A DNA stretch of 64,000 bases from Alphaproteobacteria bacterium (GCA_965220745.1 CBDCQT010000010.1:1-64000); one strand, 5' to 3'. Positions 5,873-60,926 are shown, counted from the stretch's first letter. Notes: generated from the letters alone by a model not told the origin. Made by a program: numbers and translations.

Positions 5873-5877
5873 TATTT

Positions 5878-5904: not shown

Positions 5905-5909
5905 GTCCA

Positions 5910-36773: not shown

Positions 36774-38075
<1,302 letters not shown>

Positions 38076-38090
38076 GTACCGATCTCCTGT

Positions 38091-39053
38091 TCAGAACACC
38101 GGCGCCGGGCCCAGGTTGCGGCTCAGCGCGTCGAGGCAGCCCTGGCGCACGGCGACGCCGAGCTCGACCTGGTCGAGGATGGCGCTCCGCGTGATGTCGT
38201 CGGCGACTTCGCTGTCGATCTCGACGCCTCGGTTCATGGGCCCCGGATGGAGGATCAGCGCGTTCTCCCGCGCTTGTGCGAGCTTGGCCCGGTCGAGGCC
38301 GTAGAAGCGGAAATACTCGCGGACCGACGGCACGAAGGTGCCCTGCATGCGCTCCTGCTGCAGGCGCAGCATCATGATGACATCGCAGCCCGCGAGCCCT
38401 GCCCGCATGTCGTGGAAGACCTCCACGCCCATGCGCTCGATCGCCGCCGGCACCAGCGTGGGCGGCGCGATGATGCGCACGCCGGCGCCCATGGTGTTGA
38501 GCAGCAGGATGTTGGAGCGGGCGACCCGGCTGTGCAGCACGTCGCCGCAGATGGCGACCCGGAGCCCCTCGATCCGGCCGAAGCGGTGGCGGATGGTGAG
38601 CGCATCCAGCAGCGCCTGGGTGGGATGCTCGTGGCTGCCGTCGCCGGCGTTGATCACCGCGCACTCGACGTGATTGGCGAGCAGGCGGGCGGCGCCGGCA
38701 TCCGGGTGGCGGACAATCAGCATGTCCGGGTGCATGGCGTTCAGCGTCATCGCCGTGTCGATCAGCGTCTCGCCCTTCTTGATCGCCGAGCTCGCCACAG
38801 CGATGTTGATGACGTCGGCGCCGAGCCGCTTGCCCGCAAGCTCGAACGAGGTGCGGGTGCGGGTCGAGGTCTCGAAGAAGAGTAGCACCACGGTGCGCCC
38901 GCCGAGCAGGCTCTTGCGCTTCTGCACCTCGCGGTTGAGCGCGACGTAGCCCTCGGAGAGATCGAGCAGGTGGGTGATTGCGCCTGCGGAAAGCCCCTCG
39001 ATCCCCAGCAGATGCCGGTCGCTGAAGATCGAAGGCAAGAGCGCAGGCTGCAT
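38091..39053 (-). CDS. pyrB: Aspartate carbamoyltransferase catalytic subunit
   Basis: [23 protein letters not shown] and HPGPMNRG motifs. Confidence 0.95.
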
Positions 39054-43841: not shown

Positions 43842-44281
43842 GACGCAAGCGCCGGCCGCCGGCGAAGGTCCATTCGATCTCGTGCACCGACGCCGAGTGG
43901 GAGCGGGTGCGGGTGCTGGCCGAGCGTCGGGGACTGTCGATCTCGCGCTACATGGTCGAGTGCGGGCTCACCGTGGACCCGACGACGGAAGCGCCGAAGC
44001 CGCCCCGCCTCGTGCTGGACGAGGCGGAGCAGCGGCGCCTGCTCGACGGCGTGACCGGGATCGCCGCGCGCACGGCGGCGGAAGCGGAGGAAGAAGTGCT
44101 GACGCGCATCCGCAACGCTCTCGCTTTCCTGGTGGAAGCGAGGATGCGCGAGATGGTGCGCGACGCCCGCGAGTACGAGCTGAAAGCGCTCCTTACCGAT
44201 CTGTTCGGGGAGCGCGCGGCGGCGGCAACCGTGCAGCGTCTCACCACGCGCATGGATACGGAGGCCCTCGACTCGCCGTAG
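43838..44281 (+). CDS. Ribbon-helix-helix protein 3
   Basis: SISCTDAEWERVRVLAERRGLSISRYMV; ATGA overlap. Confidence 0.65.
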   Translation: MRRKRRPPAKVHSISCTDAEWERVRVLAERRGLSISRYMVECGLTVDPTTEAPKPPRLVLDEAEQRRLLDGVTGIAARTAAEAEEEVLTRIRNALAFLVEARMREMVRDAREYELKALLTDLFGERAAAATVQRLTTRMDTEALDSP

Positions 44282-44952
44282 CCGACATCCCGGTGGCGAT
44301 GACGAAGGAAACCGCCCTTCCGGCAGCCGGCACTCAGGGTCGTCTGCGCCTCGCTGCCTCTCACGTCAGGACGCGAAGTGCGGTCTCCGGTGCCTTGTCG
44401 AGCACCCGCAACAGAGCGCGCGCCGCCCCGGTCGGGCAGCGCTTCCCCTGCTCCCAGTTGCGGATCGTCTCGTGCGGCACGTCGATGCGCCGTGCCAGCT
44501 CGGTCTGCGAAAGCCCCAGCCGCCGCCGGACCCGGCGCGCGTATCGCGCCATGTCCTGCATGGCCTCTTCCTCGTCCTCCCGCTCCTGCGCCGCGATCTC
44601 CGCCTCGGTGGTGGCGTCCACCCTGGCGGGGTCGATCCTCCCCTCCGGCAGGGTGGAGGGATCGTCGGGATCGATCCTGACGCGCGTTGTGCTCATAATC
44701 CGCGATCTCCTTGCCATTGGCCTTGCGGGCCGAGATGATGCGAACGGCCGAACCCCGCACCGTGTAGACGACGACGTACACGCGCCCGTCAACCGCGCCG
44801 AGCAGCCGGTAGCGGTCCTCGCCATAGTCCCGCCGGCGATCTTGCGCGACGATCCGCTGCGGATCGAGGAAGGCGCGGACGGCATAGGCGAAGTCGAAGC
44901 CGCGACGCTCGAAACAGGCACTGTTCTTGGCCTCGTCCCATTCGAACTCCAT
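43948..44952 (-). CDS. brnT: BrnT-family toxin (domain ~44680-44952; expected stop absent, frame reads on)
   Basis: MEFEWDEAKN, RDYGEDR and RIISARKAN motifs. Confidence 0.75.
   Translation of the reverse strand: MEFEWDEAKNSACFERRGFDFAYAVRAFLDPQRIVAQDRRRDYGEDRYRLLGAVDGRVYVVVYTVRGSAVRIISARKANGKEIADYEHNARQDRSRRSLHPAGGEDRPRQGGRHHRGGDRGAGAGGRGRGHAGHGAIRAPGPAAAGAFADRAGTAHRRAARDDPQLGAGEALPDRGGARSVAGARQGTGDRTSRPDVRGSEAQTTLSAGCRKGGFLRHRHRDVGYGESRASVSMRVVRRCTVAAAARSPNRSVRSAFSSYSRASRTISRILASTRKARALRMRVSTSSSASAAVRAAIPVTPSSRRRCSASSSTRRGGFGASVVGSTVSPHSTM
44361..44696 (-). CDS. HTH (XRE/HigA-like) antitoxin
   Basis: RRRLGLSQTELA...TIRNWEQGKRCPTGAARALL. Confidence 0.85.
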   Translation of the reverse strand: MSTTRVRIDPDDPSTLPEGRIDPARVDATTEAEIAAQEREDEEEAMQDMARYARRVRRRLGLSQTELARRIDVPHETIRNWEQGKRCPTGAARALLRVLDKAPETALRVLT

Positions 44953-45031
44953 GCCGGCACCATAGGCCAATGGCCTACGCTTGTCGAACGTGCCGTCCTG
45001 CATGGCATGCCCGGTTGCCCGGCGGACCGGG

Positions 45032-48000
45032 CTACATGGAGAGACCGCCGCCGCGATCGCGGGTCTTGGCTTTCCGGCGCTCGCGCTCTTGTTGCTCCTG
45101 CTTTTCCCGCTCCTGCCTCTGCCGCTCCAGCTTCCGCTGTTCCTGTCTCTGCTGCTCCTGCTGCCGGCGGCGTTCGATCTCGGCGTCGTCCGCCTTGAGA
45201 TCGGATTCGATCTTCGCCGACAGCCGCTTGATCTCGTCCGCCGCGCCGGGGCGGCGGTCGAGATGCCTGCCGAAGGTCTCGGGGTCGTCGAGGATCCTGC
45301 GGCAGTCGGCCAGCACGCGCCGGGCGCCCTCGCGCCACGCGGCATAGCCGGGAGCCTGGGTGACGTGGGCGTCATGCGAGTGGGCTTCGCGGGCGCGCTC
45401 GTCCCGCTCCCGGAGCGAGGCCGCCGCCGCCGACAGGGTCCGGGCGACGAAGCGCTCCGCCGCCCTGCGCCGCTCCCTTGTCGCGTCGTCCAGGACCACG
45501 TCCCTGTCAGGCGGCGGGCGCCGTTCAGTGGTTTCGGCCGGGACCGGGGTCGAGACTTCGAACTGCTCGCCGATCGCCCTCAGTGCCGACAGCTCCTCGG
45601 CCGGCGCCGTCTCCAGCGCCTCGATCAGCGCCTCGCGGTCGTCGGTCAGCAGCACCACGTTGTCCCTGGCGCGCGTGAGCTCCACGTAGAACATCGCCTG
45701 GTCGGCCGGCGCGCGGTCCGTATCCAGCACCGCGATCACCCGGTCGCAGGTGAGGCCCTGGGCCGCGTGCACGGTGGAGGAGTATGCGTGGTCCAGGTGG
45801 TGCAGCTGCGGATCGTCGCGCGCCATGGCGATCTCGCGCCCGTCCTGCGTCCGTATGTGCACGTTCACCGGGCCGATGGACAGCACCTCCGCATGCTCGC
45901 CGTTGATCAGGCCGCGCGCGGCATCGTTGCGGGTCCAGCGCACCCGGTCGCCTGCCCTGAGCACCATCGGCCGGGTCTCGTAGAGGTCGAGCCGGTAGCG
46001 GATGTAGCCGGCGGGGTCGATCCGCCGCTCCCTGCCGTCGGGATGGGCCAGCAGCACGCGCCCGTCGTCCTGCGTCTCCAGCACGCGGCAGGCATCGCCG
46101 GCCCTGGCCTTGACGCCGTAGACGTCGTGATGGAAGACCGCGACGTCGCCCGGCCGGTAGTTCGCAACCTCGCCTTTCTGCGAGCGCGTCAGGTGCAGGT
46201 TGACGTAGCGCTCGATCTCCAGCGCGGGGCCGCGCAGCACGCCCTCGTCTTCCAGGCCGTGGCGGACGGCGTCGTTGATCTCGGCCTGAGCTCGTGCGTC
46301 GGCGCCAGGATCGCCGTGCCGGCGCGCAAGGACGGATCGAGGTCGAGCCAGAGCTGCGCCGCCTTCCTGCCGAGCTCGTCGCTCTCCGTCTCCAGGACGC
46401 CCTTGCCGAGCTCCTCCACCGCCATGCGCGGCTCGTCCGCCACCATGTGCAGTACCGCTGCCTTGAGGTCCGCGTCGCGCTGGCGCACCACCACGTCCAT
46501 CCGTGCCGTCGGCATGCCTGCGTCCTGCAGCAGGCCGAAGGGCTGGCCGGCCTCCACTGACCGCAACTGCCTCCGGTCGCCGATGAGCGCGAGGCGCTCC
46601 ACGCCAGTCTCGGCTGCGATCCGCGTCAATGCCCGCATCTGCACGGTGCCGACCATCGAGGCCTCGTCGAGGATCAGCACGGTGCCGCCCAGGGCCTTGC
46701 GCGCTTCCCCTGTCCTCTCCGGCGAGGCGATGCCGTCGCCCACGTCGCGGTAGCGCGTCAGGAACCCCTGCAGGGTGCGGGCCGGGATGTCGGCCTCGCC
46801 CGCGAGCACATGGACCGCGCTCGCAGACGGGGCCAGGCCGACGATCCGATGCTCCCCGGCCAGCTCTCTCACCGTGCGCAGCATGGTGGTCTTGCCGGAG
46901 CCCGCATGGCCCTGCACCCCCACCGTGCGGTGGGGCGAGAGCAGGATCGCGCGCACGGCATCACGCTGCCCCTCGTTCAGTCCGTCCGCGTCAAGCCTGG
47001 CCTCGACCGCAGCCGGCAGCGCCAGGCTGTGGCCCGCGTCCAGACCCGCGCGCATGCCGGCGACGATGTCGCGCTCGGCGTTGCGCGCCCGGTCGGTGAC
47101 GAAGGCCAGGTCGGCCCGCCTGGCCTTCGCCTCGATCAGGTGCCCGTCGCGCCGCAGCCGGGCGATCCCGGCGTCCAGCGCTTCGAGCGCGTGCCGGCCG
47201 CCCCCGTGCGCGAGCGCCCAGGCACGCAGGTCGTTGGCGGAGAACACGGTGCGCCGCTCCTCCAGGTGCTCCACGGCGCGCCGGACCACCGACAGCGCCG
47301 ACGGAGGCGCGCGCGCCTCGCTCCGGGAGAGCGCCGATGCGCCGGCCCCGTTGCGGCCCCTGGCGCGGTCACGGTCCCTTGCGTGTCCGATCTCCCGCGC
47401 CCTCTCCTGCCACGTCTCGTGCAGCACCCGCCGCTCCGGCTCGGCCTTGCGCTGCCGCGTGTAGAGCGCCGCCTGCCGTGTCCGTGCCGGGGTGTTCTCC
47501 CAGCCGCGGTCGGCCATGTAGTCCAGAAGCTCCCTACGCCGGGTCGAGAATGCGTCCAGCATGGGCCGCCGGTAGCCCGCGATCTCGAACCCCGGCATCC
47601 GCCCCACCAGGGTCGGCACCGTGGCGTAGCCGATGTCTTCGAGGCGGGTCCGGAGCTCGTTGCGGTAGTAGGCCCCGATCAGGAGCTTGGAGCGTTCCAC
47701 CGAGGTGAACTCGGCGCTGCGCCAGTCCCCGTCCCGGCCGCGCGTCATGTTGGCGATCACCGCATGGGTGTGGAGCTGCGGATCCAGGTTGCGGCTCGCC
47801 AGGTGACGGAAGGTCGCCGCCGCCATGCCGTCGGCCTGCACCCGCGGCCGCCGCCCCGTCTCCGGCTCGTAGCTCCGGGTCTGGAGAAGCTCGGTCTCGA
47901 TGAAGCCCAGGGTGGCGCGCACCGCCTCGTCGTGGGCCCGCACCACACGCGCTCCCGTCTTCGGTGGCGCATAGACCAGCGCCTCCAGCGAGACCGACTT

Positions 48001-48276
48001 GGGCGCCGAGAAGGTCACGTCCACGCCGGGCCGGTGCTGGTGCTCGCCGTCGCGCAGACGCCCGAGGCGAAGATCGGTGCCGGGCACGTAGCCCGCGAGG
48101 ACGGCTTCGAAGCGCTTCGGGTTCACCCGCCCCTGCAGGCCCAGCAATGCCGCCGCCTCGCCGTGCCAGCGACTGGCCTTGCGGTGCTCCGGGTCGTTCC
48201 TGGCGTAGTACCCGTCCACCTCGAAGTAGTGCACCGTCGTGGCGGCGGCCTTCAGGCGCGTGACGGTCGCGACCAT
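45032..48276 (-). pseudogene. mobF: MobF (TrwC/TraI-like) relaxase-helicase, frameshifted near 46285
   Basis: DGYY, DVTFSAPKSVS, DPQLHTHAV, GHAGSGKTT and HAYSSTVHAAQG; adding one base restores PTHELRAEINDAVR. Confidence 0.85.
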
Positions 48277-48282
48277 GGGCGC

Positions 48283-49182
48283 CTACGGCTCCACCGTGGG
48301 ATCGGAGTCGTCTTCCGGCGGCAATTCGGTCAGGTTCACGTTAGGAGGGAAGGGAATCGCCACTTCCCGCGTTGGATAGATGGTCACCGGGCACCCGATG
48401 GGCTTGTCTTCCAGCCGCGCCTTCGACGCGCAGGCGGCGAGCAGCGGCGCGAAGTGCTCCACGACGTGATCGTTCCACTCGCGGTGCGGATCGCCCAGGG
48501 ACATCACGTCGGCCTCCCCCTGCAGCACCGCGCCCAGAACGAAGAAGACGAAGGACGCGGCTCCGATGGCAAGACCTGTCAGCCAGGGGCGCCACCGCAG
48601 CCTCCCGGTCATGCGGGACATGGTCTCGGTGTGACCGCGCAGAGTGCTCTCCAGTGCCGTGGCGGCCTGCGTCAACTCCGCCATGCCCTGGGCGGCCACC
48701 TCCGCCTGCCGGGCGTTCGCCTGCGCCTGCTTGCCCGTGACACGGAGACGCTTGTCGAGCGCCTCGCCCTGCGCCTTCAGCGCGGCGGCGGCCTCGGCAA
48801 GCGCCCGCGCGTCGGCCGCCTCCCGCCCGTCCCGCCGCGCGGCAAGCTCCGCCGCCTTGTCGAGCGCACCCCGCGCGTCCTCGACCGCCTGCGTCAGCGC
48901 CGCCGTCTCGCGGGCCAGAGCCTCGGCCGTCTCGTGCTCCGGCCCCGGCGTCTCCTCGAGAGCGTCGATCCGGGCCGCCGTCGCGCGCACCGTCTCGAGG
49001 ATCTCCCGGATGGCGTCGTCGTGCGCACCGGGCTGCGGCGCTGTCGCCGCGGGCGGCGTTCCTGCCGCACCGGCACTCTGCCTGCCCTCCGCCCCTTCCG
49101 GCCGGCCCACCAGCAGGTCGCGGCCGTCAAAGCCTTCCTTGCTGGAATCAGAACTGCCGCGCCTCTCCTCCGCTGGCGCCAT
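48283..49182 (-). CDS. Coiled-coil, membrane-anchored mobilisation-associated protein
   Basis: Ala/Glu coiled coil plus a TM segment (WLTGLAIGAASFVFFVLGAVL); 6 bp upstream of the relaxase. Confidence 0.55.
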   Translation of the reverse strand: MAPAEERRGSSDSSKEGFDGRDLLVGRPEGAEGRQSAGAAGTPPAATAPQPGAHDDAIREILETVRATAARIDALEETPGPEHETAEALARETAALTQAVEDARGALDKAAELAARRDGREAADARALAEAAAALKAQGEALDKRLRVTGKQAQANARQAEVAAQGMAELTQAATALESTLRGHTETMSRMTGRLRWRPWLTGLAIGAASFVFFVLGAVLQGEADVMSLGDPHREWNDHVVEHFAPLLAACASKARLEDKPIGCPVTIYPTREVAIPFPPNVNLTELPPEDDSDPTVEP

Positions 49183-49308
49183 GGTCGCCTCCCTGCCCAA
49201 AACGCATTGTTCTTGGCAGGGCATATCGGAGCCGGCAGGCCGAATGGCAAGGCTAACGCGGAGTTGCTCACCTTCCTCCGCTTCAAACGACCATACACCG
49301 CCATATGC

Positions 49309-49338
49309 TTGACAAAGTTTGGTCTCCCCGCTGACACT
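49309..49338 (+). promoter_or_regulatory. Possible promoter for the six-gene operon
   Basis: Perfect TTGACA with a weak -10 (GACACT). Confidence 0.3.
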
Positions 49339-49476
49339 CGCGCGGCCTTGGGCGCCAAGCAACGCTGGGGCTGGAGTCGCGCACCCAACCGGGTCGCGTA
49401 CGATTTGGAGTCCCAAGCTGCCGTGGCTTCCGGTTTGGACCCACCACGCCACGACATCTAGCGACGTGAGACTATC

Positions 49477-50511
49477 GTGAAAAGCACATACAACCTCATC
49501 CCCACAAATCAGATTGACTTTGACCGGGAGAACCCAAGGATCAAGGTCGCCCTCGAGAAGTACGGCAACAAGCTTGACGAAAAGCGCATCCGTTTCGCAC
49601 TGCAAACCGCCACGGAAGGATCCACCAGCGCTTCCTCCTACCGCTCCTTAAAGGATTCTATCAGAGCAGCCCGAGGTATCTCAGTGCCCATCGTCGTCTG
49701 GTCCAACGACGATCGATTCGTGTGCGTTGACGGAAACACCCGCTTGGCAATCTACCATGAGCTCCACGAGGAGGGGGCCCCCGGCAACTGGGCAGCCATC
49801 AATTGCCTTGTGCTCGACGACCCCGATCAGCGAGACATCGAGACGATTCGGGTCACAGCCCACCTCGTAGGCGCACGCGAATGGCCCGCCTACGAGAAGG
49901 CGCGATACCTTCATCACCTGCGCAACGTCGAGTTCATGGACTACGACGAGCTCATCGCCCGGTGCGGGGGTAATAAGACGACGATCACCCAGCAAATCGA
50001 CGCCTACCACGACATGAATGAGTTTTACCGCGACGTCAGCAGCGACGACGCATTCAAGGTTGATCGGTTTAGCGGATTTGTCGAGCTTCAGAAGACGGGC
50101 GTCAAGGACGCTATTTACAGTGCGGGTTTCGATCTCCACGATTTCGGCCGCTGGATACGCGACGGTCAGATATACCGACTGGCCGATGTTCGAAAGCTCC
50201 CCCGCGTTCTTGCCGACGACGAAGCGAAAGACACATTTGTCAACGGCGGTGTCCGGTCAATCGAAGACGCCATCGACGTTGCCGAGGCCAACCGCCGAAA
50301 GGACATCCATGCTCCAACGGCCGATATCACAGTTGCCAATGCCAGCATGGCGGTACTGGCCGAAGCTCTCCTTCAGAGAATCAAAGCCCTGCCACGAGAG
50401 GACTACCTTGCACTCCGCGATCGGCATTACGAGACCGCGGACCAAGACGTTGACACCTTGAGTGATCTCGCCGAACAACTCCGCGACCTACTCCAAGATG
50501 TCTCAAAGTAA
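49477..50511 (+). CDS. ParB/Srx N-terminal domain protein A
   Basis: ENPRI...LKDSI...PIVV...VDGNTRL; AHLVGAREWPAYEKA. Confidence 0.75.
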   Translation: MKSTYNLIPTNQIDFDRENPRIKVALEKYGNKLDEKRIRFALQTATEGSTSASSYRSLKDSIRAARGISVPIVVWSNDDRFVCVDGNTRLAIYHELHEEGAPGNWAAINCLVLDDPDQRDIETIRVTAHLVGAREWPAYEKARYLHHLRNVEFMDYDELIARCGGNKTTITQQIDAYHDMNEFYRDVSSDDAFKVDRFSGFVELQKTGVKDAIYSAGFDLHDFGRWIRDGQIYRLADVRKLPRVLADDEAKDTFVNGGVRSIEDAIDVAEANRRKDIHAPTADITVANASMAVLAEALLQRIKALPREDYLALRDRHYETADQDVDTLSDLAEQLRDLLQDVSK

Positions 50512-50950
50512 CGTGCATCGTCTGCTGGTTGTCGCCGTCGCGCAAGCCATACAACAGCGTCATCCGGCGATGCACGTTACAGCTGATCTACTCGAAGCTC
50601 CTGGCGATCCGGTGCCTCCGCGCATCGGCGGCCACCGTCCTGACATCGTCGCCCGTTGCAGTGCCGCCTGTCTCCAGTTCATTATCGCGGAAGCCAAGAC
50701 CGACGGCGATATCGACAACCGACATACTCGAAGTCAAATTGGTGCCTTCGTGGATCACCTCGACGCCATGACAACGGGCACCGGCACCTTCATCTTGGCC
50801 GTCAACGGACATGTCGCAGATTCAGCAAGGACTCTACTCCGCTTTGCCTGTCGTCAACGCGTGTCGTCCCGACTCCATATCAAAGTGTTCGACGGCCTCG
50901 ACTTCTGGACCCTGGGTCCCCCTGGAGCCCCCCTGTGGCGTTTGTCCTAA
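50498..50950 (+). CDS. Small PD-(D/E)xK nuclease-fold protein
   Basis: IGGHRPDIVAR...IAEAKT...HTRSQ. Confidence 0.6.
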   Translation: MSQSNVHRLLVVAVAQAIQQRHPAMHVTADLLEAPGDPVPPRIGGHRPDIVARCSAACLQFIIAEAKTDGDIDNRHTRSQIGAFVDHLDAMTTGTGTFILAVNGHVADSARTLLRFACRQRVSSRLHIKVFDGLDFWTLGPPGAPLWRLS

Positions 50951-52437
50951 GACGCCAACCCGAACTTTCGCCCAAACATGCGGCGTATCCCTACCAGCTT
51001 GACGCCATTCGTGCCGTCAAGGATCTCACCTACGCAGCCATCTTTCATGAGCAAGGACTCGGAAAGACAAAGATTGCGATCGACCTAGCCCTGTTATGGC
51101 TGCAGAGCGACTCCGTAGATACCGTGTTCATCGTCACGAAGAAGTCGCTGGTCGAGAACTGGCGTAACGAAGTTGCGGGTCATTGTCACATCACGCCGCA
51201 CATCCTGTCCGGCAACCGAGCCCAGAACAGCGCGTCCCTCAACTCGCCAGTGCTCCTCTACGTCACCAACTACGAAACCATTGCTGCCAACGTACCGATC
51301 ATCAGATTATTCCTACAGACTTGTCGCGTCGGTTGCATCCTCGACGAGAGCCAGAAGATCAAGAATCCCGAGGCCGCCCTGACGCGTATCTTCCTAGACA
51401 TGGCCTCGTCCTTCGAGCGACGCATAATTATGACCGGAACACCCGCTGCAAACCGTCCGTATGACATCTGGGCGCAGATCAAGTTTCTTGATGGCGGTGA
51501 AGCGCTCGGTGATACCTTCGCGACTTTCAGGCAGAGAATGGATTTGCCCGCCAAACACGCGGAGGCGGCCGACTATGGCAGTCGGCTGTCCACGATCCAT
51601 CAACGTGTCGCCGCGTTTACTGTCCGAGAGACCAAGAACACGGCAGGTATCCACCTACCGGAAAAAACCATCACTGCTCATCACGTGGACTTGCCACCTT
51701 GGCAAATGGCAAAGTACGTCGCCTACCGCGACGAACTCGCCTATGAGTACGATATGAAAGGTGTTGTCGAAGTCGACGATGTTGAGAGCATTCTCAAGCG
51801 ACTACTTCGCCTAGTCCAATGTGCCTCGAATCCGGCACTCATTGACGGTCGATACGACCATGATCCCGCTAAATTTCCCCTTCTTCTTGATATGTGCGAT
51901 AACTTTACCGAAGATTCCAAGGTGATTATTTGGACCGGATTCATTGATAACGTTAACTGGCTAGCCGCCAAACTCGCAGAATTTGAGCCTGTATGTATAC
52001 ACGGCAGCTTGCCTATTCGCCAGCGCAATAGAGCCGTTGATTCTTTTACTAATTCCTCCAATTTAATTTTGATCGCCACTCCAGGTTCTGCAAAAGAGGG
52101 ACTTACTTTGACCGCCGCGAACCACGCTATCTTCTTTGACCGTGGCTTTAGCCTCGACGATTACCTCCAAGCACAAGACCGCATCCACCGTATCTCTCAG
52201 ACCCGCAATTGCTTTATCCATAATCTTATTGCCAATGATACGATCGACGAATGGGTTGATGTCTTACTGACTGCCAAGTATCGCGCGGCGCAACTAACAC
52301 AGGGCGATATCGATCCCGCTGCTTTTCACGACTACTTCCGTACAGACATTTCTGAGGTACTGCAAGGCATTCTGTTTCCGCGTCGAGCCACCTCAAGCCG
52401 TCAGTTGTCTGAGCAATCGGAGGCCACGGGCCGATGA
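50935..52437 (+). CDS. SNF2-family helicase/ATPase
   Basis: EQGLGKT, LDESQKIKN, MTGTP, KEGLTLTAA and QAQDRIHRISQ; GTG start after GGAG. Confidence 0.9.
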   Translation: MAFVLRRQPELSPKHAAYPYQLDAIRAVKDLTYAAIFHEQGLGKTKIAIDLALLWLQSDSVDTVFIVTKKSLVENWRNEVAGHCHITPHILSGNRAQNSASLNSPVLLYVTNYETIAANVPIIRLFLQTCRVGCILDESQKIKNPEAALTRIFLDMASSFERRIIMTGTPAANRPYDIWAQIKFLDGGEALGDTFATFRQRMDLPAKHAEAADYGSRLSTIHQRVAAFTVRETKNTAGIHLPEKTITAHHVDLPPWQMAKYVAYRDELAYEYDMKGVVEVDDVESILKRLLRLVQCASNPALIDGRYDHDPAKFPLLLDMCDNFTEDSKVIIWTGFIDNVNWLAAKLAEFEPVCIHGSLPIRQRNRAVDSFTNSSNLILIATPGSAKEGLTLTAANHAIFFDRGFSLDDYLQAQDRIHRISQTRNCFIHNLIANDTIDEWVDVLLTAKYRAAQLTQGDIDPAAFHDYFRTDISEVLQGILFPRRATSSRQLSEQSEATGR

Positions 52438-53450
52438 ACCCTGATGAGACAAGCATCTCCATATTGGAGCATGACGTTTCCGCCCGCCACGAGCTTATTC
52501 CCATCGATCAACTGCTTTTTTTGCCCGACAATCCTCGGGTGTATGCTGCTATACGAGATATGTCCGATTTCGCTGACCTCACACCAGACGAGAAGCAGCA
52601 ACGCATCTATGAACGCTTGCTCCAAGAGCCTAGCGTCAAGAATCTTATACCTGAGATCCAGCGGGACGGTGGACTACAAGAACCCGTGATTGTCCGTTGG
52701 GACACTCGGCAAGTGATTGAAGGCAACTCGCGTTTAGCTGCTTACCGGAAATTACTTGACGAAAATTCCCAAGATGACCGCTGGACACAAATCCGCTGTC
52801 TTGTCGTAAAGACCCTTACGGATGAACAACAGACGCGACTTCTAGGTCAAGCGCATCTAGAGGGAAGAACCGAATGGTCGCCGTATGCGAAGGCTTTGTT
52901 CTGCTTTCGCTGGGTGGTTGAGGACGGGCGAGATATTGCTACTTTGACACGAGTATGCCGTTTTACTGCCGCTGAGATAAGGAAGAATGTTAAAATTATA
53001 GAACTAATGCAGCAGAATAATGATAAGATCCTATCTAATTTCAGCTATTACAACGTTCTCATCCGAAATCGGGTCATCTCATCTGCTATCGGAGATAGCC
53101 CACTACTGAAACAAACACTGTTGACCCAAATCAAATCTGAAGACTTTACCGCCCAAGAAATGCGCGAGCATCTTCCTGTCATTATAGCCAAACCGCGTAT
53201 TCTAAAAAAATACGAGAAAGGTGAAGTGACGCTTGATGAAGCCTTTGAACGCGCAAAAATTAGTGGCGCTGAACAACAGCTCAAGAAGATTCGCGACGGC
53301 CTAGACGACATCCGTTCAGAGGATATATCTCCGCTGGAACGCGATGCTCTCGGTGCTGTACAGCAGCTTGTTAGACAGATCAATCGGCACCTTAAGCGTG
53401 TCTCTGGTATGGTCGAGGCTAAACTTGCTGAGAAATCCAACAATTCATGA
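52434..53450 (+). CDS. ParB/Srx N-terminal domain protein B
   Basis: DNPRV...GGLQEPVIV...IEGNSRL; AHLEGRTEWSPYAKA. Confidence 0.75.
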   Translation: MNPDETSISILEHDVSARHELIPIDQLLFLPDNPRVYAAIRDMSDFADLTPDEKQQRIYERLLQEPSVKNLIPEIQRDGGLQEPVIVRWDTRQVIEGNSRLAAYRKLLDENSQDDRWTQIRCLVVKTLTDEQQTRLLGQAHLEGRTEWSPYAKALFCFRWVVEDGRDIATLTRVCRFTAAEIRKNVKIIELMQQNNDKILSNFSYYNVLIRNRVISSAIGDSPLLKQTLLTQIKSEDFTAQEMREHLPVIIAKPRILKKYEKGEVTLDEAFERAKISGAEQQLKKIRDGLDDIRSEDISPLERDALGAVQQLVRQINRHLKRVSGMVEAKLAEKSNNS

Positions 53451-55105
53451 ATGAAAGTTTGGATGCTATGATAAAAAGGAACGTTCTGCTAGTCGAACCA
53501 GGCTATCCGAACAAGTATCCTCCACTCGGCCTGATGAAGATTGCCGCCTACCATGGCCCCAACGGCCGCGGCGATAATGTGCTGTTTGTTAAGGGCGATA
53601 CGCCTGAAGCTCTTAATCGCGTCTGGGACCGCGTCTACGTAACCACTCTATTCAGTTTCGAGTGGAAGCGGACTTCCGCTGCTATCGACTTCGCACTGCG
53701 CGCCGTCCGCGGTCAGGCGGAGCGAGTATTTGTCGGCGGCATAGCGGCCACACTGATGTTTGACGAGTTTGCCGGCGAGCCACGCTGGGCGGGTGTACGC
53801 TTCATCAAGGGCCTTCTCGACCAGCCGCCCGCCCGCTCTCTGCAACTTTTCGCCGAGGACGGCGATTTCGGTGCCGATGATCTTGCTGGCACGTCGATCG
53901 AGGAATTGGTTCCCGATTACAGCATTCTCCGCCAGACTCCCTACACCTATCCAGTACGGAATGCCTACTTCGGATACGCGTCCCGGGGATGCGTCCGTCA
54001 ATGTGCCTTCTGCGGCGTTCCTAAGCTGGAGGGTGCGCAACGCGAGATGCCTCCGATCACTAGCCTTATCGCCGGCGTAGACGAGCAGTTTGGTCCGAAG
54101 AAAGACCTCATCCTTATGGACAACAACATCGCCGCCAGTTCCCGATATAAGGAGGTGATCGCCGAGATTCGGGATCTTGGGTTCCAGAGCGGCGCTATGT
54201 TCGAACGACCGGACACTCTACCCGTCAAACGACGTGTCGACTTCAACCAAGGGATCGACGCCCGCATCCTCTGCAAGACACCTATGTACCTCAAGGAGAT
54301 GGCGACGATCTGCATAGATCCTTTGCGCATCGCCTTCGACCACGTTGGGATGCGGCGGGTCTACGAGCGTTCTGTACATATGGCGGCCGAATACGGGTTG
54401 AGATCGCTGTCCAACTACATGCTTTACAACTTCATGGACACGCCGAACGACCTCTACCAGCGGATGAGCATCAACATTGAGCTCAACGAGCGCCTTGGCG
54501 TTAGGATTTGGTCCTTCCCAATGCGGTATCTGCCCGTCACGATGAAGGATCGTTCACACGTGGGCAAGAACTGGAACCGCTACTACCTCAGGTCCTTCCA
54601 GATCATGCTGCAAGCTACACACGGCGTCGTGTCAGGCAGCAACGAGTTCTTTCTCAGGGCCTTTGGAAATAGCGATGAAGAATTCGAGAGGCTTCTCGCA
54701 CTGCCACATGCGTTCATATTCCAGCGAGACTTCTATGAACACGGGGAAGGTAGACCTGTTCTCGACGAGTACCTTGCCCTGCTGCACCGGGCCACTGAAG
54801 CAGAACGCATCGAACTCATCAGCCTGCTCAGCGAAACTTTGCTCGCTCGACCACGCCGCCAAGCATTCCTTCGCCTACTTTCCGATAAGTCCACAGGCCA
54901 GCTCATCCGCGAGCTCGCACGATTCCACGCTATCGATACAAAGGCTGCGAAAGTCACAGACATAGCCAACGTCTTCCCCGAGGTGTCACCCGACCACATG
55001 CTTCCAGAGCCCGATGCGCTCGTCGAGGACGCGGGGCTCTACGAGCCGCTCGAACCGACAGCCCAAGTCACCTCCAGTCACCACGCTGAACGCGGATCCT
55101 GCTGA
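53447..55105 (+). CDS. Radical SAM protein with B12-binding-like N-terminus
   Basis: LLVEP...YPPLGLMKIA; SRGCVRQCAFC (CxxxCxxC); DNN; VDFNQGIDAR. Confidence 0.85.
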   Translation: MNESLDAMIKRNVLLVEPGYPNKYPPLGLMKIAAYHGPNGRGDNVLFVKGDTPEALNRVWDRVYVTTLFSFEWKRTSAAIDFALRAVRGQAERVFVGGIAATLMFDEFAGEPRWAGVRFIKGLLDQPPARSLQLFAEDGDFGADDLAGTSIEELVPDYSILRQTPYTYPVRNAYFGYASRGCVRQCAFCGVPKLEGAQREMPPITSLIAGVDEQFGPKKDLILMDNNIAASSRYKEVIAEIRDLGFQSGAMFERPDTLPVKRRVDFNQGIDARILCKTPMYLKEMATICIDPLRIAFDHVGMRRVYERSVHMAAEYGLRSLSNYMLYNFMDTPNDLYQRMSINIELNERLGVRIWSFPMRYLPVTMKDRSHVGKNWNRYYLRSFQIMLQATHGVVSGSNEFFLRAFGNSDEEFERLLALPHAFIFQRDFYEHGEGRPVLDEYLALLHRATEAERIELISLLSETLLARPRRQAFLRLLSDKSTGQLIRELARFHAIDTKAAKVTDIANVFPEVSPDHMLPEPDALVEDAGLYEPLEPTAQVTSSHHAERGSC

Positions 55106-56604
55106 TGTCCGAGGATGCTCTCGTCGGCGGTGACATACTCCGCCTCGTCACTGCAGGCATGTACGACAATCCACTAGTCATCTACCGCGAATACCTTCAG
55201 AACGCCGCCGACTCCATAGCCTCTCTCAACGATGGTACCGGCTCGGTGAGCGTCACCATCGATCCAGTAGGATCGCAAGTCACCATTATGGACGATGGGA
55301 CCGGACTTTCGCCATCCGACGCTGTCCGTCGCCTAGTCCACATTGGTAACAGCACCAAAGTTCGCGGCGTCGAACGTGGACTACGTGGCATCGGTCGACT
55401 ATCGGCTCTCGCCTTCGCTGAGAACGTCCACTTCACGACGCGCACACGTGCCTCAGAACCTGTTACTCGGGTGTCCTGGAGCAGTCGTGCATTGCGCAAA
55501 CTTGATGTCGCTCACGTTGATGCCAGGACCGCAATCGAAGCCTGTACAACCGTCCAATCCCTTTCAAACGATCATTGGCCTGATCGATTTTTTCAGGTGA
55601 CAGTCGACGGAGTTACTCGACACGCCGCTTCGAGCATTCTCAACAGGGATGCTGTCAGGAGCTACATCGCAGAGGTCTGCCCAGTGCCCCTGGACTCTTC
55701 CTTCCCGCTTGAAGGCGAGATCCAGAACTTCCTTACCGCTCACACGGATTATTTTGTGCTCGACGTTCGGATCAACGGAGATCAGGAGCCGATAGTACGG
55801 CCTTTCAAACAGGCAATCCCTCTAACGGACGATTTTTCCGCCGTATTTGAGCGGTTGGAAACTCAGGTGATTCCTCAAGTTGATCAAGGCCACCCTGCCG
55901 CTGTTCTGTGGCTCGCACACACACCCTACGCCGGCTCCATATCCCGACGACTGAGCATCCGTGGCCTCCGTGCACGTGCCGGAAATATCCAGATCGGCTC
56001 GGATGGTGTTTTCGAACATCTCTTCCACGAGACACGCTTCAACGGTTGGTGCGTAGGCGAGGTACATATTATCGACAGTCGTATAGTCCCGAACGCTCGC
56101 CGCGACTACTTCGAGGCTGGTCCCCATCTCCGTAACCTCGAAAACCACATCGGCGCCATCGCCCACAAGATCAGCTCCCGGTGCCGTCGCGCTTCATCTC
56201 AGCGAAACAAGCTCCGAGCCGCAAGACTGGTCATTAATCAGGCCAGCTGCGCCCGCGAACTAGCCACCTCCGGGTATCTCCGCGCCGAGGACGCTTCACA
56301 ACTGCTCAGGCTTCAACGCGAACGCTTACTCCAAGTCAGAGAAACTCTCCAACATGTTCAAGGCGTGACCTCGCACTCTAGTCTAGACGACCTTGACCTT
56401 TGCCAGGCTCAACTGGACGCCGTCAAGTTCGACGCCGAACCTTCCCTGATCGGCATTCCACCTGACTCTGTCGGTAATCTCCTATCGGCCTTTGGTGTGC
56501 TCTCCCAGTCCCTGCCGCCGGATACGGCCGTTGACTTGATCGAAACCATTATGCGTCGGCTGTCCGCCGATATGTCAGCCTCCAAGGCTGCCAAGAAGGC
56601 TTAA
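55105..56604 (+). CDS. GHKL (Hsp90/MORC-like) ATPase
   Basis: REYLQNAADS, DDGTG and RGIGRLS motifs. Confidence 0.85.
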   Translation: MSEDALVGGDILRLVTAGMYDNPLVIYREYLQNAADSIASLNDGTGSVSVTIDPVGSQVTIMDDGTGLSPSDAVRRLVHIGNSTKVRGVERGLRGIGRLSALAFAENVHFTTRTRASEPVTRVSWSSRALRKLDVAHVDARTAIEACTTVQSLSNDHWPDRFFQVTVDGVTRHAASSILNRDAVRSYIAEVCPVPLDSSFPLEGEIQNFLTAHTDYFVLDVRINGDQEPIVRPFKQAIPLTDDFSAVFERLETQVIPQVDQGHPAAVLWLAHTPYAGSISRRLSIRGLRARAGNIQIGSDGVFEHLFHETRFNGWCVGEVHIIDSRIVPNARRDYFEAGPHLRNLENHIGAIAHKISSRCRRASSQRNKLRAARLVINQASCARELATSGYLRAEDASQLLRLQRERLLQVRETLQHVQGVTSHSSLDDLDLCQAQLDAVKFDAEPSLIGIPPDSVGNLLSAFGVLSQSLPPDTAVDLIETIMRRLSADMSASKAAKKA

Positions 56605-57044: not shown

Positions 57045-57768
57045 TCAGCCACTTGAGCTTACCTCACTCCCATCCAAGGCCCGCGCGATGGCCGCACCGA
57101 TGCGCTCCGCCGCCGCCTCGGTCTCGCGGTCTCCGACATGGGCGTAGCGCAGCGTCATGCTCGGCCGCTTGTGACCCAGCAGGCGCGAGACGACGGGCAG
57201 CGGGATGCCCTGCAAGACGGCGTGACTTGCGAACGTGTGTCTGAGGTCATGCAGGCGCACGTCTTCGAGCCCCGCTCTCTTGCGTACCGAACGCCAGAGC
57301 GGCAGGCCGGACGACAGCGGCCGCCCGGGATCGAGCGGCGAGGGGAAGACGCAGGCGCTCCCCGAGCGTGGCTGACGCTCCAGGATGGCGCGGGCCGGCG
57401 CGCTCAGAAGGACGGTTCTCGGTCCGCCCTTGGCGTCGACCAGATTGAGCGTGTTCCCGTCGATGTCCTGCCAGCGCAGAGTAACGATCTCGTTCCTTCG
57501 ACAGCCCGTCAGCAACAGAAGACGGATGATGTCCGCCTGCCGGGCGCGTGACGGTCGCACGCTGCCATAGTGGTCAAGCTCGTGGTGGAGGCGACGGACC
57601 TCCTCGCGCGACAGGAAGCGCGTGAGCTTCGGACGGGGATTCCGCCTGATGCCGCGGACCGGATTCGTATCGAGATGACCGCAGACGACTGCATGGTTCA
57701 GCATCCGGCGGAGCAGGTTCAGCCCGTGATTGGCCCCGCCGGGAGCGGTCCGGCTGTACTCGTCGAAC
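57045..57768 (-). pseudogene. Tyrosine integrase, N-terminally truncated by IS3
   Basis: TGCRRNEI, HDLRHTFAS and LLGH...MTLRYAH; 5' end abuts the IS3 end. Confidence 0.85.
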
Positions 57769-59031
57769 TGATCCTCCCCCATCGGATTGGTCCACCCTTA
57801 GGTTATGGAAAGAGGAGGACCGACGATGGCAAGGAAGCGTTACAAGCCCGAGGAGATCGTGAGCCTGCTGCGGCGGGCTGAGGTTCTGAACGGCCAGGGC
57901 ATGTCGATGGCGGACGCGATCCGCGAGCTTGGGATCAGCGAGGTTACCTTCTACCGCTGGCGCAAGGAGTATGCCGGGATGAGCGGCGATCAGCTCCGCC
58001 GTTTGAAGGAGCTCGAGAAGGAGAACGAGCGGCTGCGCCGTGCGGTCTCCGATCTGACGCTGGACAAGCAGATTCTCAAAGAGGCCGCAGGGGGAAACTT
58101 CTAAGCCCCTCGCGCCGGCGCCAGTGCATCGATCATGTCTGTGACCGGCTCGGGGTCTCGGAACGCCGCGCTTGCCGGGTGCTGGGGCAGCACCGCTCGA
58201 CCCAGCGCCGCATCCCGCGCGGCCGCGACGACGAGGACCGCCTGGTCGCGTACATGATCGAGCTGGCCCGCCAGTACGGCCGTTACGGCTATCGCCGCAT
58301 CGCGGCCCTGCTTCGCGATGCCGGCTGGCAGGTCAACGACAAGCGGATCGAGCGCTTGTGGCGGCGCGAGGGGCTGAAGGTGCCCGGCAAGCAACCGAAG
58401 CGGGGCCGGCTTTGGCTCAATGACGGCTCCTGCATCCGGCTGCGCGCCGAGAGGGCGGATCACGTCTGGTCCTACGACTTCGTCCATCACCGGACGTATG
58501 ACGGCAGGGCCTTCCGCATGCTCAACGTCCTGGACGAGTTCACCCGCGAGAGCCTGGTCATCCGGGTGCGCAGGAGGCTTTCCTCGATCGACGTCATCGA
58601 TGTGCTGACCGACCTGTTCATCCTGCGCGGCATTCCGACCTGGATCCGTTCCGACAACGGTCCGGAGTTCGTCGCCGAGGCCGTCAGGCGGTGGATCGCT
58701 GCGGTCAGCGCCCGCACCGCCTTCATCGAGCCGGGCTCACCCTGGGAGAACGGCTACATCGAGAGCTTCAATGCGCGGCTGCGCGACGAGCTCCTGAACG
58801 GGGAGATCTTCTACACCCTGAAGGAAGCCCAGGTTCTCATCGAATCGTGGCGGTGCCATTACAACGCCGTGCGCCCACACAGCAGCCTGGGATACCGGCC
58901 GCCGGCCCCGGAGACGATCATCATGCCAAGCTGGCCGCCCGGCTCCGCTACGCTCCGCCGGTCACCCAGCTTGGCCGGCAAACCCGCAATGCACTAACAT
59001 TCGACTTGGACCAGTCGACGGGGGCAGGTCA
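57769..59031 (+). mobile_element. IS3-family element
   Basis: TG...CA ends; IRs TGATCCTCCCCCATCGGATTGGTCCA / (rc)TGACCTGCCCCCGTCGACTGGTCCA; no TSD. Confidence 0.9.
57826..58997 (+). CDS. IS3 transposase OrfA (57826-58104) plus OrfB joined by -1 frameshift
   Basis: OrfA HTH; slippery GGGGGAAAC near 58090; OrfB with WSYDF, SDNGPEF and ESFN. Confidence 0.9.
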
Positions 59032-59764: not shown

Positions 59765-60061
59765 TCAGTTATAACTCCCTTCGTAAAGATCGTCCCAATC
59801 GGGGTTGTGCGCGACGATGAGATTGACCTTCCAGGCGCGCGGCCAGTGCTTCATGGTCCGTTCCCGCTGGATGGCCGCGGCAATGTCCTCGTGGCGCTCC
59901 GCGTAGACGAGCCGGGTCAGGCGGTACCGCTTGGTGAACCCCTCGACCAGGCCCTCGCGGTGTTCCCACGCCCTGCGTACAACGTTACTGGTGACACCGA
60001 GATAGAGCGTGCCGTTGGGTCGGTTGGTCATGATGTAGACCCAGCCCCCGCCCTCTCTCAT
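59765..60061 (-). CDS. Small GIY-YIG nuclease (YhbQ-like)
   Basis: WVYIM...TLYLGVT...EH..G...FTKRY...AIQRE..MK.W.R.WK. Confidence 0.9.
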   Translation of the reverse strand: MREGGGWVYIMTNRPNGTLYLGVTSNVVRRAWEHREGLVEGFTKRYRLTRLVYAERHEDIAAAIQRERTMKHWPRAWKVNLIVAHNPDWDDLYEGSYN

Positions 60062-60082
60062 GTCCCCATGCTGCAATCCGTG

Positions 60083-60129
60083 AATGCCCGGAACACCCCC
60101 GGGCCTTGATCCGGGGGCCGAGCATGACG
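60083..60129. repeat. REP palindrome, inverted relative of 42719-42751
   Basis: rc catgctcggcccccggatcaaggcccgggggtgt versus catgaccggcccccggatcaagtccgggggtgt. Confidence 0.7.
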
Positions 60130-60401
60130 ACGTGGGGCAATAGCCCGGTCTTGGCTCAGGACTCCACGCCACGCCCGGCCGTGAGCTCGTGATTGTACCG
60201 TGCTGCCTCGGCGCGCGCCTCGGTCCCCCCCTTTCGCCTCGCTCTCCGCGTCGGAGAGCTCCTCGACGGTATGCACTTGACGTTCTCGCCGTTTCCTGGC
60301 TCATACGCTTGGATTGAGATAATCGCGCGTCGGTTCCTTCAACAGCGCCAATTGGAAGATCTCAATGATGCGCTGCTTTATTTAGGAGGGGAGTATCGGT
60401 T

Positions 60402-60926
60402 TTGAGTGCTTACTTTGAGTGGAATGAGGATTTGCCATTTCTTGCACAACAAAATCGAGAGGTCTTTGCGCGTTTTGGCCTAGCAATGTACTACTCACAG
60501 TGCTTAGAAACACAAATCGGAATTATGCTGTCCACAATGTACAATGTGAACTTTTTTGACAGTTCTATGGAGGAACGAGATATTTTCTTTGAGAAAAATT
60601 TGTCTAAGACACTGGGCGCAATGGAGAAAGATCTTGAAAATAGAGCGTCGCTACCGCCTAATCTAGAAGTCAAGTTGAAAGATGCAGTTAAGCTTAGAAA
60701 CTGGCTAGCGCATCGCTATTTCTACGAGCGCGGAAAAGATATCCTGCTGTCTGATGGGCGAGAAAGAATGATTCTAGAACTTCAAGAGAAGGTTGATTTT
60801 CTGAAGAACGTAGATGAGGAATTCGTGAACATACTGAAAGTGTGGCGGCGCGATAAGGGAATATCCGATGAGCAAGTACAAGAAGAAATGCAAAAACTTC
60901 TCTCAGACTCCAACATAAGCTTCTGA
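60402..60926 (+). CDS. AT-rich orphan with a HEPN-like Rx4H motif
   Basis: Helical protein; KTLG...AVKLRNWLAHRYF; strong RBS; TTG start. Confidence 0.6.
   Translation: MSAYFEWNEDLPFLAQQNREVFARFGLAMYYSQCLETQIGIMLSTMYNVNFFDSSMEERDIFFEKNLSKTLGAMEKDLENRASLPPNLEVKLKDAVKLRNWLAHRYFYERGKDILLSDGRERMILELQEKVDFLKNVDEEFVNILKVWRRDKGISDEQVQEEMQKLLSDSNISF

Follow-up and report, generated by a model that had tools for sequence, protein, structure and literature searches.

Each of the two known 'exotic' DNA modification systems has its ParB-family member, DndB in Dnd and DpdB in Dpd. In Dpd, the ParB-superfamily ATPase DpdB accompanies a DNA-modifying enzyme, and the SNF2-type helicase DpdE belongs to the restriction part. 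For Dnd and Ssp, the accessible text of a study of Dnd (PMC10853773) describes a modification module that is constant and often includes the ParB-family protein DndB, and restriction modules that are optional, exchangeable and often uncoupled. Here we describe a 7.1-kb cassette of six genes, g1 to g6, located at positions 49477-56604 of a 64,000-nucleotide stretch of alphaproteobacterial DNA (GCA_965220745.1, CBDCQT010000010.1:1-64000; this whole stretch is called the window below). Its products are a ParB-like protein (g1), a candidate PD-(D/E)xK-type nuclease (g2), an SNF2-family protein (g3), a second ParB-like protein (g4), a radical SAM enzyme (g5) and a GHKL ATPase (g6). Our analysis has shown that the six genes fall into two modules and do not form a single obligate unit, and that the cassette is a conserved, horizontally moving gene set. 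No named system was matched, and this multi-gene, modification-restriction-like cassette has a real chance of categorically new chemistry. The reading that we tentatively favour, with somewhat less than even confidence, is a horizontally acquired two-module defence-type system acting on DNA by the logic of Dnd, Ssp and Dpd; DNA as the substrate, its modification, restriction, and the exclusion of phages or plasmids are all predicted from the sequence.

Dpd is the nearest known analogue of the cassette, both in logic and at the component level. The g3 protein matches DpdE models (best E-value 6e-32), and a DGQHR-motif protein that accompanies g5 relatives in related loci matches DpdB. Unlike Dpd, the cassette has no DpdA (TGT-like), no DpdC and no preQ0 synthesis genes: PADLOC finds no DpdA, DpdB or DpdC match among the six window proteins, so that the set defining Dpd is not present, and the presumed modifying enzyme here is a radical SAM enzyme, which belongs to another superfamily than DpdA. 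To our knowledge, an Hsp90-like ATPase is not among the Dpd components. An earlier interpretation of the window, made from its letters alone (the sequence-only reading), had set aside Dpd together with BREX, DISARM, Dnd, Ssp and viperin loci. The last five are indeed excluded, as their required components have no match in PADLOC (a weak one to DrmA apart), in Pfam or among the fold matches listed. For Dpd, the lack of DpdA, DpdB and DpdC in the window agrees with that claim, but the DpdE-like g3 and the DpdB-like partner in relatives make Dpd the closest comparison by component.

The likeness to Dnd and Ssp is found around relatives of the cassette, where a DndH-C-like ATPase is encoded (4.5e-51); DndB- and DndH-like proteins occur only in such related loci. 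In the PADLOC search no Dnd or Ssp model matches any of the six proteins, and neither the DndACDE nor the SspABCD set is found. Moreover, the cassette differs from both in having no cysteine desulfurase and no PP-loop enzyme, radical SAM chemistry being predicted here instead of sulfur insertion.

The PADLOC check proposed by the sequence-only reading yielded no system match in PADLOC-DB 2.0. In this database g2 and g5 have no match of any kind, and g3 matches helicase cores only (ZorD 7e-39, DpdE 6e-32, DrmD 6.7e-17, HmaA 1e-16, BrxHI 2.2e-12, BrxHII 1.1e-5, and weakly DrmA, 0.002); in PADLOC, NCBIfam and Pfam the cassette proteins have component-level matches only. The SNF2 core of g3 is shared with DrmD of DISARM, BrxH of BREX and HmaA of Hma, but DrmA, DrmB, DrmC and the methylase of DISARM are absent (apart from the weak DrmA match), as are PglZ, PglX and BrxC of BREX and the Hma methylase. 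Together, g2 and g3 look like a split nuclease-helicase such as ZorD of Zorya, described by PADLOC as 'SWI2/SNF2 helicase, Mrr-like nuclease'; however, g3 matches only the helicase part of ZorD, the NCBIfam ZorD model gives 74.5 bits against a cut-off of 1500, and ZorA, ZorB and ZorC are absent. Prokaryotic MORC/paraMORC, Tiamat and Hsp90-like defence proteins share with g6 the GHKL ATPase, a middle domain, a C-terminal dimerising region and helicase or nuclease neighbours. The constant neighbour of g6 is a radical SAM enzyme, a pairing that does not occur in the accessible part of the Tiamat preprint, and the match of g6 to TmtA of PADLOC is weak (0.002-0.004).

Viperins and Ophion have in common with this locus a radical SAM enzyme within a defence-type gene cluster. 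The architecture of viperins has no extra N-terminal domain of the kind seen in g5 (552 aa), and g5 has no match in PADLOC, which contains viperin models. The accessible part of the Ophion preprint (10.1101/2025.09.30.679545) states that the radical SAM protein OpnA requires the PHP and PRTase partners OpnB and OpnC; in contrast, no PHP or PRTase domain was found by Pfam in the cassette. No description of this gene set was found in the accessible text of open-access papers and preprints, although an earlier description may exist outside these; the papers retrieved concerned Dnd (PMC10853773), ProPhylo (PMC3226654), defence evolution (PMC5379612), Ophion and Tiamat (10.64898/2026.09.30.754977).

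The division into two modules follows from gene order. A scan of species-representative genomes with the radical SAM gene gave at least 513 loci, and the best 80 were kept for gene-order counts; they belong to Acidobacteriota, Chloroflexota, Nitrospirota, Gemmatimonadota, Verrucomicrobiota, several proteobacterial classes and other groups. In 78 of these 80 loci a GHKL gene lies directly 3' of the radical SAM gene, with the two genes overlapping or touching in 57 of the 78 and overlapping by 4 nt in 35 (longest open reading frame (ORF) starts being used for junction counts). The SNF2 gene with at least two ParB-like genes, usually accompanied by a small nuclease gene, forms a block that is present in half of the loci (40/80) and occupies different positions: on the same strand, it is upstream of the radical SAM gene in 22 loci and downstream in nine; on the opposite strand, it is upstream in four and downstream in five. 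Thus, the six genes do not behave as the single unit that had been proposed. Nor does the ATPase group with the helicase and nuclease as an effector, which was also part of that proposal, since its gene adjoins the radical SAM gene almost everywhere. The conservation of the six-gene order, suggested as a check by the sequence-only reading, is found in part: the window's order around the radical SAM gene recurs in 22 of the 80 loci, from many phyla, but the block is missing from half of the loci and mobile in the others.

Rates of divergence also differ among the six proteins. Over 25 six-gene loci, the mean identity to the window is 63% for the radical SAM enzyme (the best conserved of the six), 58% for SNF2, 51% for the first ParB-like protein, 44% for the nuclease, 42% for the ATPase and 40% for the second ParB-like protein, g6 and g4 being the fastest-evolving ones. 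In two loci the SNF2 protein is nearer to the window (76% and 69%) than the radical SAM enzyme is (62% and 58%, respectively), which argues that the two modules recombine.

In plasmids, core and block are distributed unequally, as would be predicted for modification and restriction modules. Matches were found in 20 plasmid records, seven of which are typed conjugative. Relatives of g1 are present in seven records, and all seven also carry the radical SAM gene; conversely, 12 plasmid records contain a close radical SAM relative (54-63% identity), and five of these lack the block. For example, pNL1 from Novosphingobium has a DGQHR gene followed by the radical SAM and ATPase genes, and pR132505 from Rhizobium has the full block, a DGQHR gene and the radical SAM/ATPase pair. 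No match was found in complete Escherichia coli genomes, so no model-organism copy is at hand.

Horizontal movement is seen directly in the comparison of the cassette with a metagenome-assembled genome (MAG) of the acidobacterial order Vicinamibacterales: the two are 82.6% identical over 7121 nt, and the alignment extends from the first codon of g1 to about 10 bases before the end of g6. In all 15 colinear loci considered, the GC content of the cassette is below that of its flanks. In the window it is 54.7%, compared with 71.4% in the left flank (5 kb), 64.5% in the right flank and 68.5% in the rest of the window, and the drop coincides exactly with positions 49477-56604. In a wider collection, 5678 of 8000 candidate relatives of g5 scored at E ≤ 0.001, the best 120 all being 77-100% identical; among representatives of 50%-identity clusters, 1606 clusters belong to the g5 family at E ≤ 0.001 and 272 at E ≤ 1e-30.

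The g5 protein consists of an N-terminal Rossmann-like domain, a radical SAM barrel and a disordered acidic tail. It is a radical SAM superfamily member according to its motif and to the partial TIM-barrel fold of its AlphaFold2 model (mean pLDDT 87.9). The CxxxCxxC motif (C182/C186/C189) is invariant in 16 relatives; in a set of 50, this holds for C186 and C189, whereas the conservation of C182 is 90% or more. The family also has invariant motifs of its own, DFNQGxD, RxAFD and SxYxLxN. The Pfam Radical_SAM model (PF04055) gives 15.4 bits, below its cut-off of 29.5, and Foldseek assigns a probability of 1.0 to about 25 radical SAM structures, the best being MgmA (2e-10), MiaB, OxsB, AprD4, TsrM and TokK (E-values from 2e-10 to 8e-7), at 12-16% identity and with query-normalised TM-scores of 0.39-0.47. 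The two-domain fold and the CxxxCxxC motif are common to g5 and the cobalamin-type and MiaB-type enzymes (MgmA, TsrM, OxsB, TokK, AprD4, MiaB, RimO).

This resemblance covers the cobalamin enzymes MgmA, OxsB, TsrM and TokK, but equally AprD4 and MiaB, which use the N-terminal Rossmann-type domain otherwise than for cobalamin. Pfam B12-binding matches, all below the cut-off, were obtained for four of 16 longer g5 relatives scanned and not for g5 itself. A MiaB/RimO methylthiotransferase was considered and rejected: no cysteine before residue 182 is invariant or near-invariant in the 16 and 50 relatives compared, so the Rossmann-like domain is not of the MiaB type; moreover, Pfam finds no TRAM domain, and the NCBIfam RimO model gives 18.4 bits against a cut-off of 357. 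The complex predicted for residues 1-499 of g5 with g6 scored 0.02 (mark 0.32) and is neutral on contact between the two.

Longer relatives of g5 (11 proteins of 677-824 aa) have an extra 240-380 C-terminal residues, which are alike among themselves and contain no Pfam domain. These extensions match none of the neighbourhood proteins, so that fusions to the GHKL ATPase were rejected as an explanation. Five proteins of 804-824 aa (P0138, P0148, P0151, P0171 and P0182) form a branch whose C-terminal part is longer by a helical region of some 370 residues. Shorter, distant relatives of g5 are found in phages (25-31% identity; PHROG family phrog_9298 at 8e-39). In Bacteroides phage LoVEphage (4989-5906 of that locus) such a gene has Dam methylase genes as its neighbours and a PAPS-reductase-like gene nearby, and in Marinitoga camini virus 1 (4998-6080) it adjoins HerA and nuclease genes.

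The best argument for g5 working on DNA is its link with DGQHR proteins. In 25 of the 80 loci, a 350-aa DGQHR protein is encoded immediately 5' of the radical SAM gene. It matches DpdB of PADLOC at 5.8e-11, and a larger form with a C-terminal HEPN domain does so at 2.9e-26; both forms match Pfam DndB. In two proteins, P0212 (791 aa) and P0271 (802 aa, from a Myxococcales MAG), a DGQHR-family domain is fused to the radical SAM domain (hidden Markov model E-values 4e-36 and 2.5e-41, respectively); they are only 48% identical to each other, and such divergence speaks for a genuine fusion and for the two domains acting together. These neighbours and fusions indirectly support the view that the radical SAM enzyme acts on DNA, as an argument from company. 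The profiles of g2, of the DGQHR family and of a 320-aa partner of GHKL paralogues (see below) gave nothing usable against the Protein Data Bank (PDB).

The g6 protein is a GHKL ATPase superfamily member with an ATPase domain, a middle domain and a variable helical C-terminus. It matches Pfam HATPase_c_3 (PF13589) with 30.9 bits (cut-off 25), and the Bergerat-fold residues E29, N33, D36, D63, G65, G92, G95 and G97 are invariant in 46 relatives, among which the C-terminal helical part has no invariant column. Its AlphaFold2 model (mean pLDDT 89.1) has TRAP1, Hsp90 and GRP94 as best Foldseek matches, at 1e-15 and spanning the N-terminal and middle domains, and the family profile matches HtpG at 7.5e-14. 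The sequence-only reading had named MORC/GHKL ATPases among the proteins that recur in restriction-like systems; the GHKL boxes of g6 are intact, but its fold is Hsp90/TRAP1-like, with no MORC or MutL chain among the matches listed. An Hsp90/HtpG chaperone proper was also rejected (NCBIfam PRK14083, 49 bits against 455; HtpG PRK05218, 20.5 against 371), and the sequence matches to HtpG/Hsp90 models are confined to roughly the first 150 residues. There is no nuclease, HD or phosphoesterase domain fused to g6.

Recurrent neighbours were clustered over 82 loci (80 genome and two plasmid ones), and GHKL paralogues are frequent among them: together with a PIN_8 protein in 13 loci, with a HerA-like ATPase (the above match to the DndH C-terminus) and an uncharacterised 320-aa protein in 12, and with two uncharacterised proteins in five. 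They are 21-31% identical to g6 (for example, L003:13168-16618, L010:17475-20391 and L005:5470-9931). These two- or three-gene sets resemble sister systems that share one kind of ATPase, and PADLOC assigns none of them to a system. DGQHR-HEPN fusion proteins occur in 13 of the 82 loci, and DUF5131 also recurs (PADLOC candidates PDC-M41B and PDC-M30B). Of 140 flanking proteins selected, 69 from 35 loci were scanned, with matches to N6_N4 methylases (two), HsdM_N, BglII, Mrr_cat, AbiEi, PLD, UvrD, a DUF4143 ATPase, transposases and an integrase, as well as to housekeeping proteins (valyl-tRNA synthetase, aldolase). The surroundings are therefore defence-island-like, alongside housekeeping genes.

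The block proteins are recognised with varying ease. The g3 protein is an SNF2-family helicase member: it matches Pfam SNF2-rel_dom (PF00176; 1.5e-26, 93.6 bits, cut-off 24.9) and Helicase_C (PF00271; 1e-15, 58.4 bits), motifs I, II, III and VI are readable in its translation (GLGKT, DESQ, TGTP and QAQDRIHR, the last fitting QxxDRxHRxxQ), and no fused nuclease or other domain was found. Its strongest family match is phrog_62, an 1881-position phage 'DNA helicase' family (5e-91). The small g2 protein has no match in Pfam, NCBIfam, PADLOC, PHROG or PDB; H7, D30, P48, D49, E65, K67 and Q80 are invariant in 27 relatives, and P48-D49 with E65-A-K67 form a PD...EAK signature of putative catalytic residues. 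Its nearest named Atlas clusters are four PD-(D/E)xK families, whose score of 0.88 is below the 0.9 line and makes them a lead only.

The paralogues g1 and g4 (hhalign probability 100, E-value 9.8e-40) have no Pfam match. In g1, N19-P20-R21 and G86-N87-x-R89 are invariant in 28 relatives, as are N33-P34-R35 and G97-N98-x-R100 of g4 in 27. Weak matches point to ParB: TIGR03764 (7.3e-5; 22.5 bits against a cut-off of 143.75) and PADLOC PDC-M38A (1e-6) for g1, whose family profile also weakly matches the ParB/Srx-fold protein SbnI (0.017), and the ParB-like phrog_620 (7.5e-5) for g4. The g4 protein weakly matches the N-terminus of the phage 'DNA methyltransferase' family phrog_498, and its orthologue on pR132505 is annotated as 'ParB N-terminal domain-containing protein'. 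That g4 is a divergent DGQHR protein was rejected, since hhalign finds no relation (probability 0.4). In all cassette enzymes the catalytic residues are intact and conserved, and activity is predicted from them. This agrees with the sequence-only reading: the SNF2, CxxxCxxC, GHKL and PD...EAK residues could all be read, the last three sets being invariant or near-invariant in relatives.

A constant conserved core and an optional, movable nuclease block, which in the small plasmid sample is bound to the core, repeat the pattern of Dnd, Ssp and Dpd, and for this reason a modification core with a restriction arm is favoured. The core would comprise g5 and g6, helped by a ParB-superfamily protein (g4 here, the DGQHR protein in many relatives). 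An ATPase dimer and the ParB-family protein would load onto DNA and present it to the radical SAM enzyme, which would install a covalent mark on resident DNA via a 5'-deoxyadenosyl radical; given the cobalamin-type N-terminal domain, C-methylation is one chemical option. The clamp-and-recruit logic for the GHKL ATPase is taken from the accessible part of the Tiamat preprint (10.64898/2026.09.30.754977). The exchangeable arm of g1, g2 and g3, possibly with g4, would translocate on unmarked DNA and cut it. In support of this reading are the fixed g5-g6 pair, the movable block, the plasmid asymmetry and the DGQHR company, and further the intact catalytic residues, the defence-island-like surroundings and the horizontal transfer.

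Several points weigh against it. The 80 loci were picked through the radical SAM gene, so that solo SNF2 blocks cannot show up among them, and some loci end at contig edges, which makes the absences upper bounds; 27 of the 80 have neither the block nor an adjacent DGQHR gene. The asymmetry between core and block rests on 12 plasmid records. Because the window lacks a DGQHR gene and g4 has no detectable relationship with the DGQHR family, a stand-in role for g4 is a guess. In P0212 and P0271 the stretch of the profile with the DGQHR motif is unaligned, so that these fused proteins may lack a ParB-type active site. Among the fold matches of g5, no solved radical SAM enzyme acts on DNA, the substrates of the best ones being protein (MgmA), tRNA (MiaB), small molecules (OxsB, AprD4, TokK, CysS) and tryptophan (TsrM). 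The pairing of GHKL paralogues with PIN and other non-modifying partners fits equally well an ATPase whose partner is an effector. Finally, modification, substrate and phenotype are predicted ones for every member of the family.

A more specific proposal is possible, if rather doubtful: g5 would install a DNA modification of a chemical kind new to restriction-like systems, by radical C-H functionalisation of a base or sugar (for example, cobalamin-dependent C-methylation), being loaded by the Hsp90-like ATPase clamp and the ParB-family protein, and the absence of the mark would be read by the ParB/nuclease/SNF2 block or by PIN, HerA-like or HEPN modules. If true, the family would join Dnd/Ssp and Dpd as a third major line of 'exotic' modification-restriction systems. 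A DNA-modifying core would add radical SAM chemistry to methyltransfer, phosphorothioation and 7-deazaguanine exchange as means of DNA self-marking, and would give Hsp90-type ATPases a DNA role; were g5 an effector rather than a marker, bacterial immunity would gain a new arm based on a radical SAM enzyme. The family is not rare, occurring in many phyla and on conjugative plasmids, and the cassette is small and self-contained with clear catalytic residues, which makes the question directly testable.

The effector role belongs to the alternative that survives best, although we consider it unlikely: defence without self-marking, where the ATPase would be a sensor or switch, the radical SAM enzyme the effector, and the SNF2/nuclease block a second cooperating arm. 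In that case g5 would, upon infection, produce an antiviral small molecule or nucleotide analogue, as viperins do, or else act on nucleic acid of the phage or the host by damaging or modifying it. The varied partners of the GHKL paralogues (PIN_8, the 320-aa protein with the HerA/DndH-like ATPase, and a 556-aa protein in the same neighbourhoods) speak for it, as they make the ATPase look like a common chassis with swappable catalytic partners. The fast evolution of g6 and g4 relative to g5, and the C-terminus of g6, free of invariant columns, are what one would expect of a sensor in an arms race. Viperins, being radical SAM defence enzymes, provide a precedent. Another is Ophion, as far as the accessible part of its preprint goes (10.1101/2025.09.30.679545). 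However, g5 has no PADLOC match, its fold matches are cobalamin- or MiaB-type with no viperin among those listed, the DndB/DpdB-like link including the fusions points to DNA-bound action, and no nucleotide kinase or similar helper was seen among the recurrent neighbours. Besides, an effector is usually the variable part of a system, whereas g5 is its most conserved one.

Less probable still is a self-serving function for mobile elements, where the cassette would modify the element's own DNA for anti-restriction or establishment, or act against competing plasmids, with no phage protection of the host. The window cassette does lie beside a TrwC relaxase gene in a decayed mobile region, seven of the 20 matching plasmid records are conjugative, and phage families recur among the matches (phrog_62 for g3, weakly phrog_498 for g4, and phrog_9298 for g5, with the LoVEphage copy next to Dam methylase genes). 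Still, a relaxase relative is found within 10 kb in only two of the 80 genome loci, so that relaxase adjacency was rejected as a conserved feature; relatives of any of the window's own integrase, insertion sequence (IS) or relaxase genes are found at this distance in 16 of the 80, none of the 69 flanking proteins scanned has a relaxase domain, and self-protection needs neither a dedicated PD-(D/E)xK nuclease nor an SNF2 translocase. The least probable alternative is a non-conflict role, with the pair modifying RNA, protein or a metabolite or serving DNA repair next to an unrelated, co-travelling SNF2 block, as might be suggested by the protein, tRNA and small-molecule substrates of all close structural matches of g5, by the classical protein-chaperone role of Hsp90-type ATPases and by the 27 loci with the bare pair, but it agrees poorly with the low GC in 15 of 15 loci, the cross-phylum near-identity, the patchy distribution, the nucleases and DndB/DpdB-like, DndH-like and restriction-modification genes recurring nearby, and the co-occurrence of the block in half of the loci despite rearrangement.

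The layout of the locus is given in Table 1. Six plus-strand ORFs fill the stretch, according to the ORF listing and the reading of the junction sequences. The features listed by the sequence-only reading hold here: the genes are co-oriented, with successive overlaps of 14, 16, 4, 4 and 1 nt from g1/g2 to g5/g6; their GC content is lower than that of the host; they lie between a relaxase and an integrase gene; and no DNA methyltransferase domain was found by Pfam in any of the six proteins. The 16-nt overlap of g2 and g3 recurs in homologous loci (for example, L003 and L008). The promoter and terminator scan of the cassette gave no sites above shuffled sequence, and the Rfam and tRNA scans found no tRNA and no Rfam family in the whole window.

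Table 1. Genes of the cassette and the two mobility genes next to it (window coordinates).
Feature	Position	Strand	Start codon	Length (aa)	Description	Pfam E-value
g1	49477-50511	+	GTG	344	ParB/Srx-like protein 1, first gene of the accessory block	
g2	50498-50950	+	ATG	150	Small candidate PD-(D/E)xK-type nuclease	
g3	50935-52437	+	GTG	500	SNF2-family helicase/translocase core	
g4	52434-53450	+	ATG	338	ParB/Srx-like protein 2, abuts the radical SAM gene	
g5	53447-55105	+	ATG	552	Divergent radical SAM enzyme	
g6	55105-56604	+	ATG	499	Hsp90-like GHKL ATPase	
Relaxase	46189-48276	-			TrwC relaxase with AAA_30 helicase domain, left of the cassette	8e-77
Integrase	57045-57782	-		245	Phage_integrase (tyrosine recombinase) ORF, fragment, right of the cassette	6.6e-25

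On the right side there are also an IS3-type transposase and a GIY-YIG ORF, and further to the left two DDE transposases, a NikA-like ORF and an ORF with a BrnT domain; with the relaxase and integrase ORFs, they make the setting a decayed mobile region. The relaxase region consists of two overlapping minus-strand ORFs, the one in Table 1 and 45032-46240 (UvrD_C_2/helicase C-terminus); a frame change may have divided what was a single MobF relaxase gene (45032-48276), as would be in keeping with the decay of the element. Between the relaxase and the cassette there is a predicted coiled-coil ORF with a hydrophobic stretch (48283-49605, minus strand), whose longest form shares 129 nt with the beginning of g1; the true start codon probably lies further inside this ORF. 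In the long ORF at 43948-45375 (minus strand), the BrnT toxin domain (Pfam, 2.8e-25) covers residues 146-223 only, and the BrnT gene is probably much shorter than the ORF.

The two DDE transposases, which are different from each other (39689-40831 and 41073-42413, both on the minus strand), mark the left edge of the mobile region. They directly adjoin pyrimidine biosynthesis genes for a dihydroorotase-like protein (36774-38075) and aspartate carbamoyltransferase (38091-39053). A second low-GC patch (49.5% at 60-61 kb) contains the GIY-YIG ORF (59765-60304, minus strand) and an ORF with a weak HepT-like match (60402-60926, plus strand), and the two ORFs (59765-60926), next to the IS3 transposase, may represent a further imported pair of toxin or defence type. 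GC content is also low at 10000-10700 (53% in the 10-11 kb bin, amid 70%), where there are only short ORFs, such as 10186-10476 on the minus strand (96 aa).

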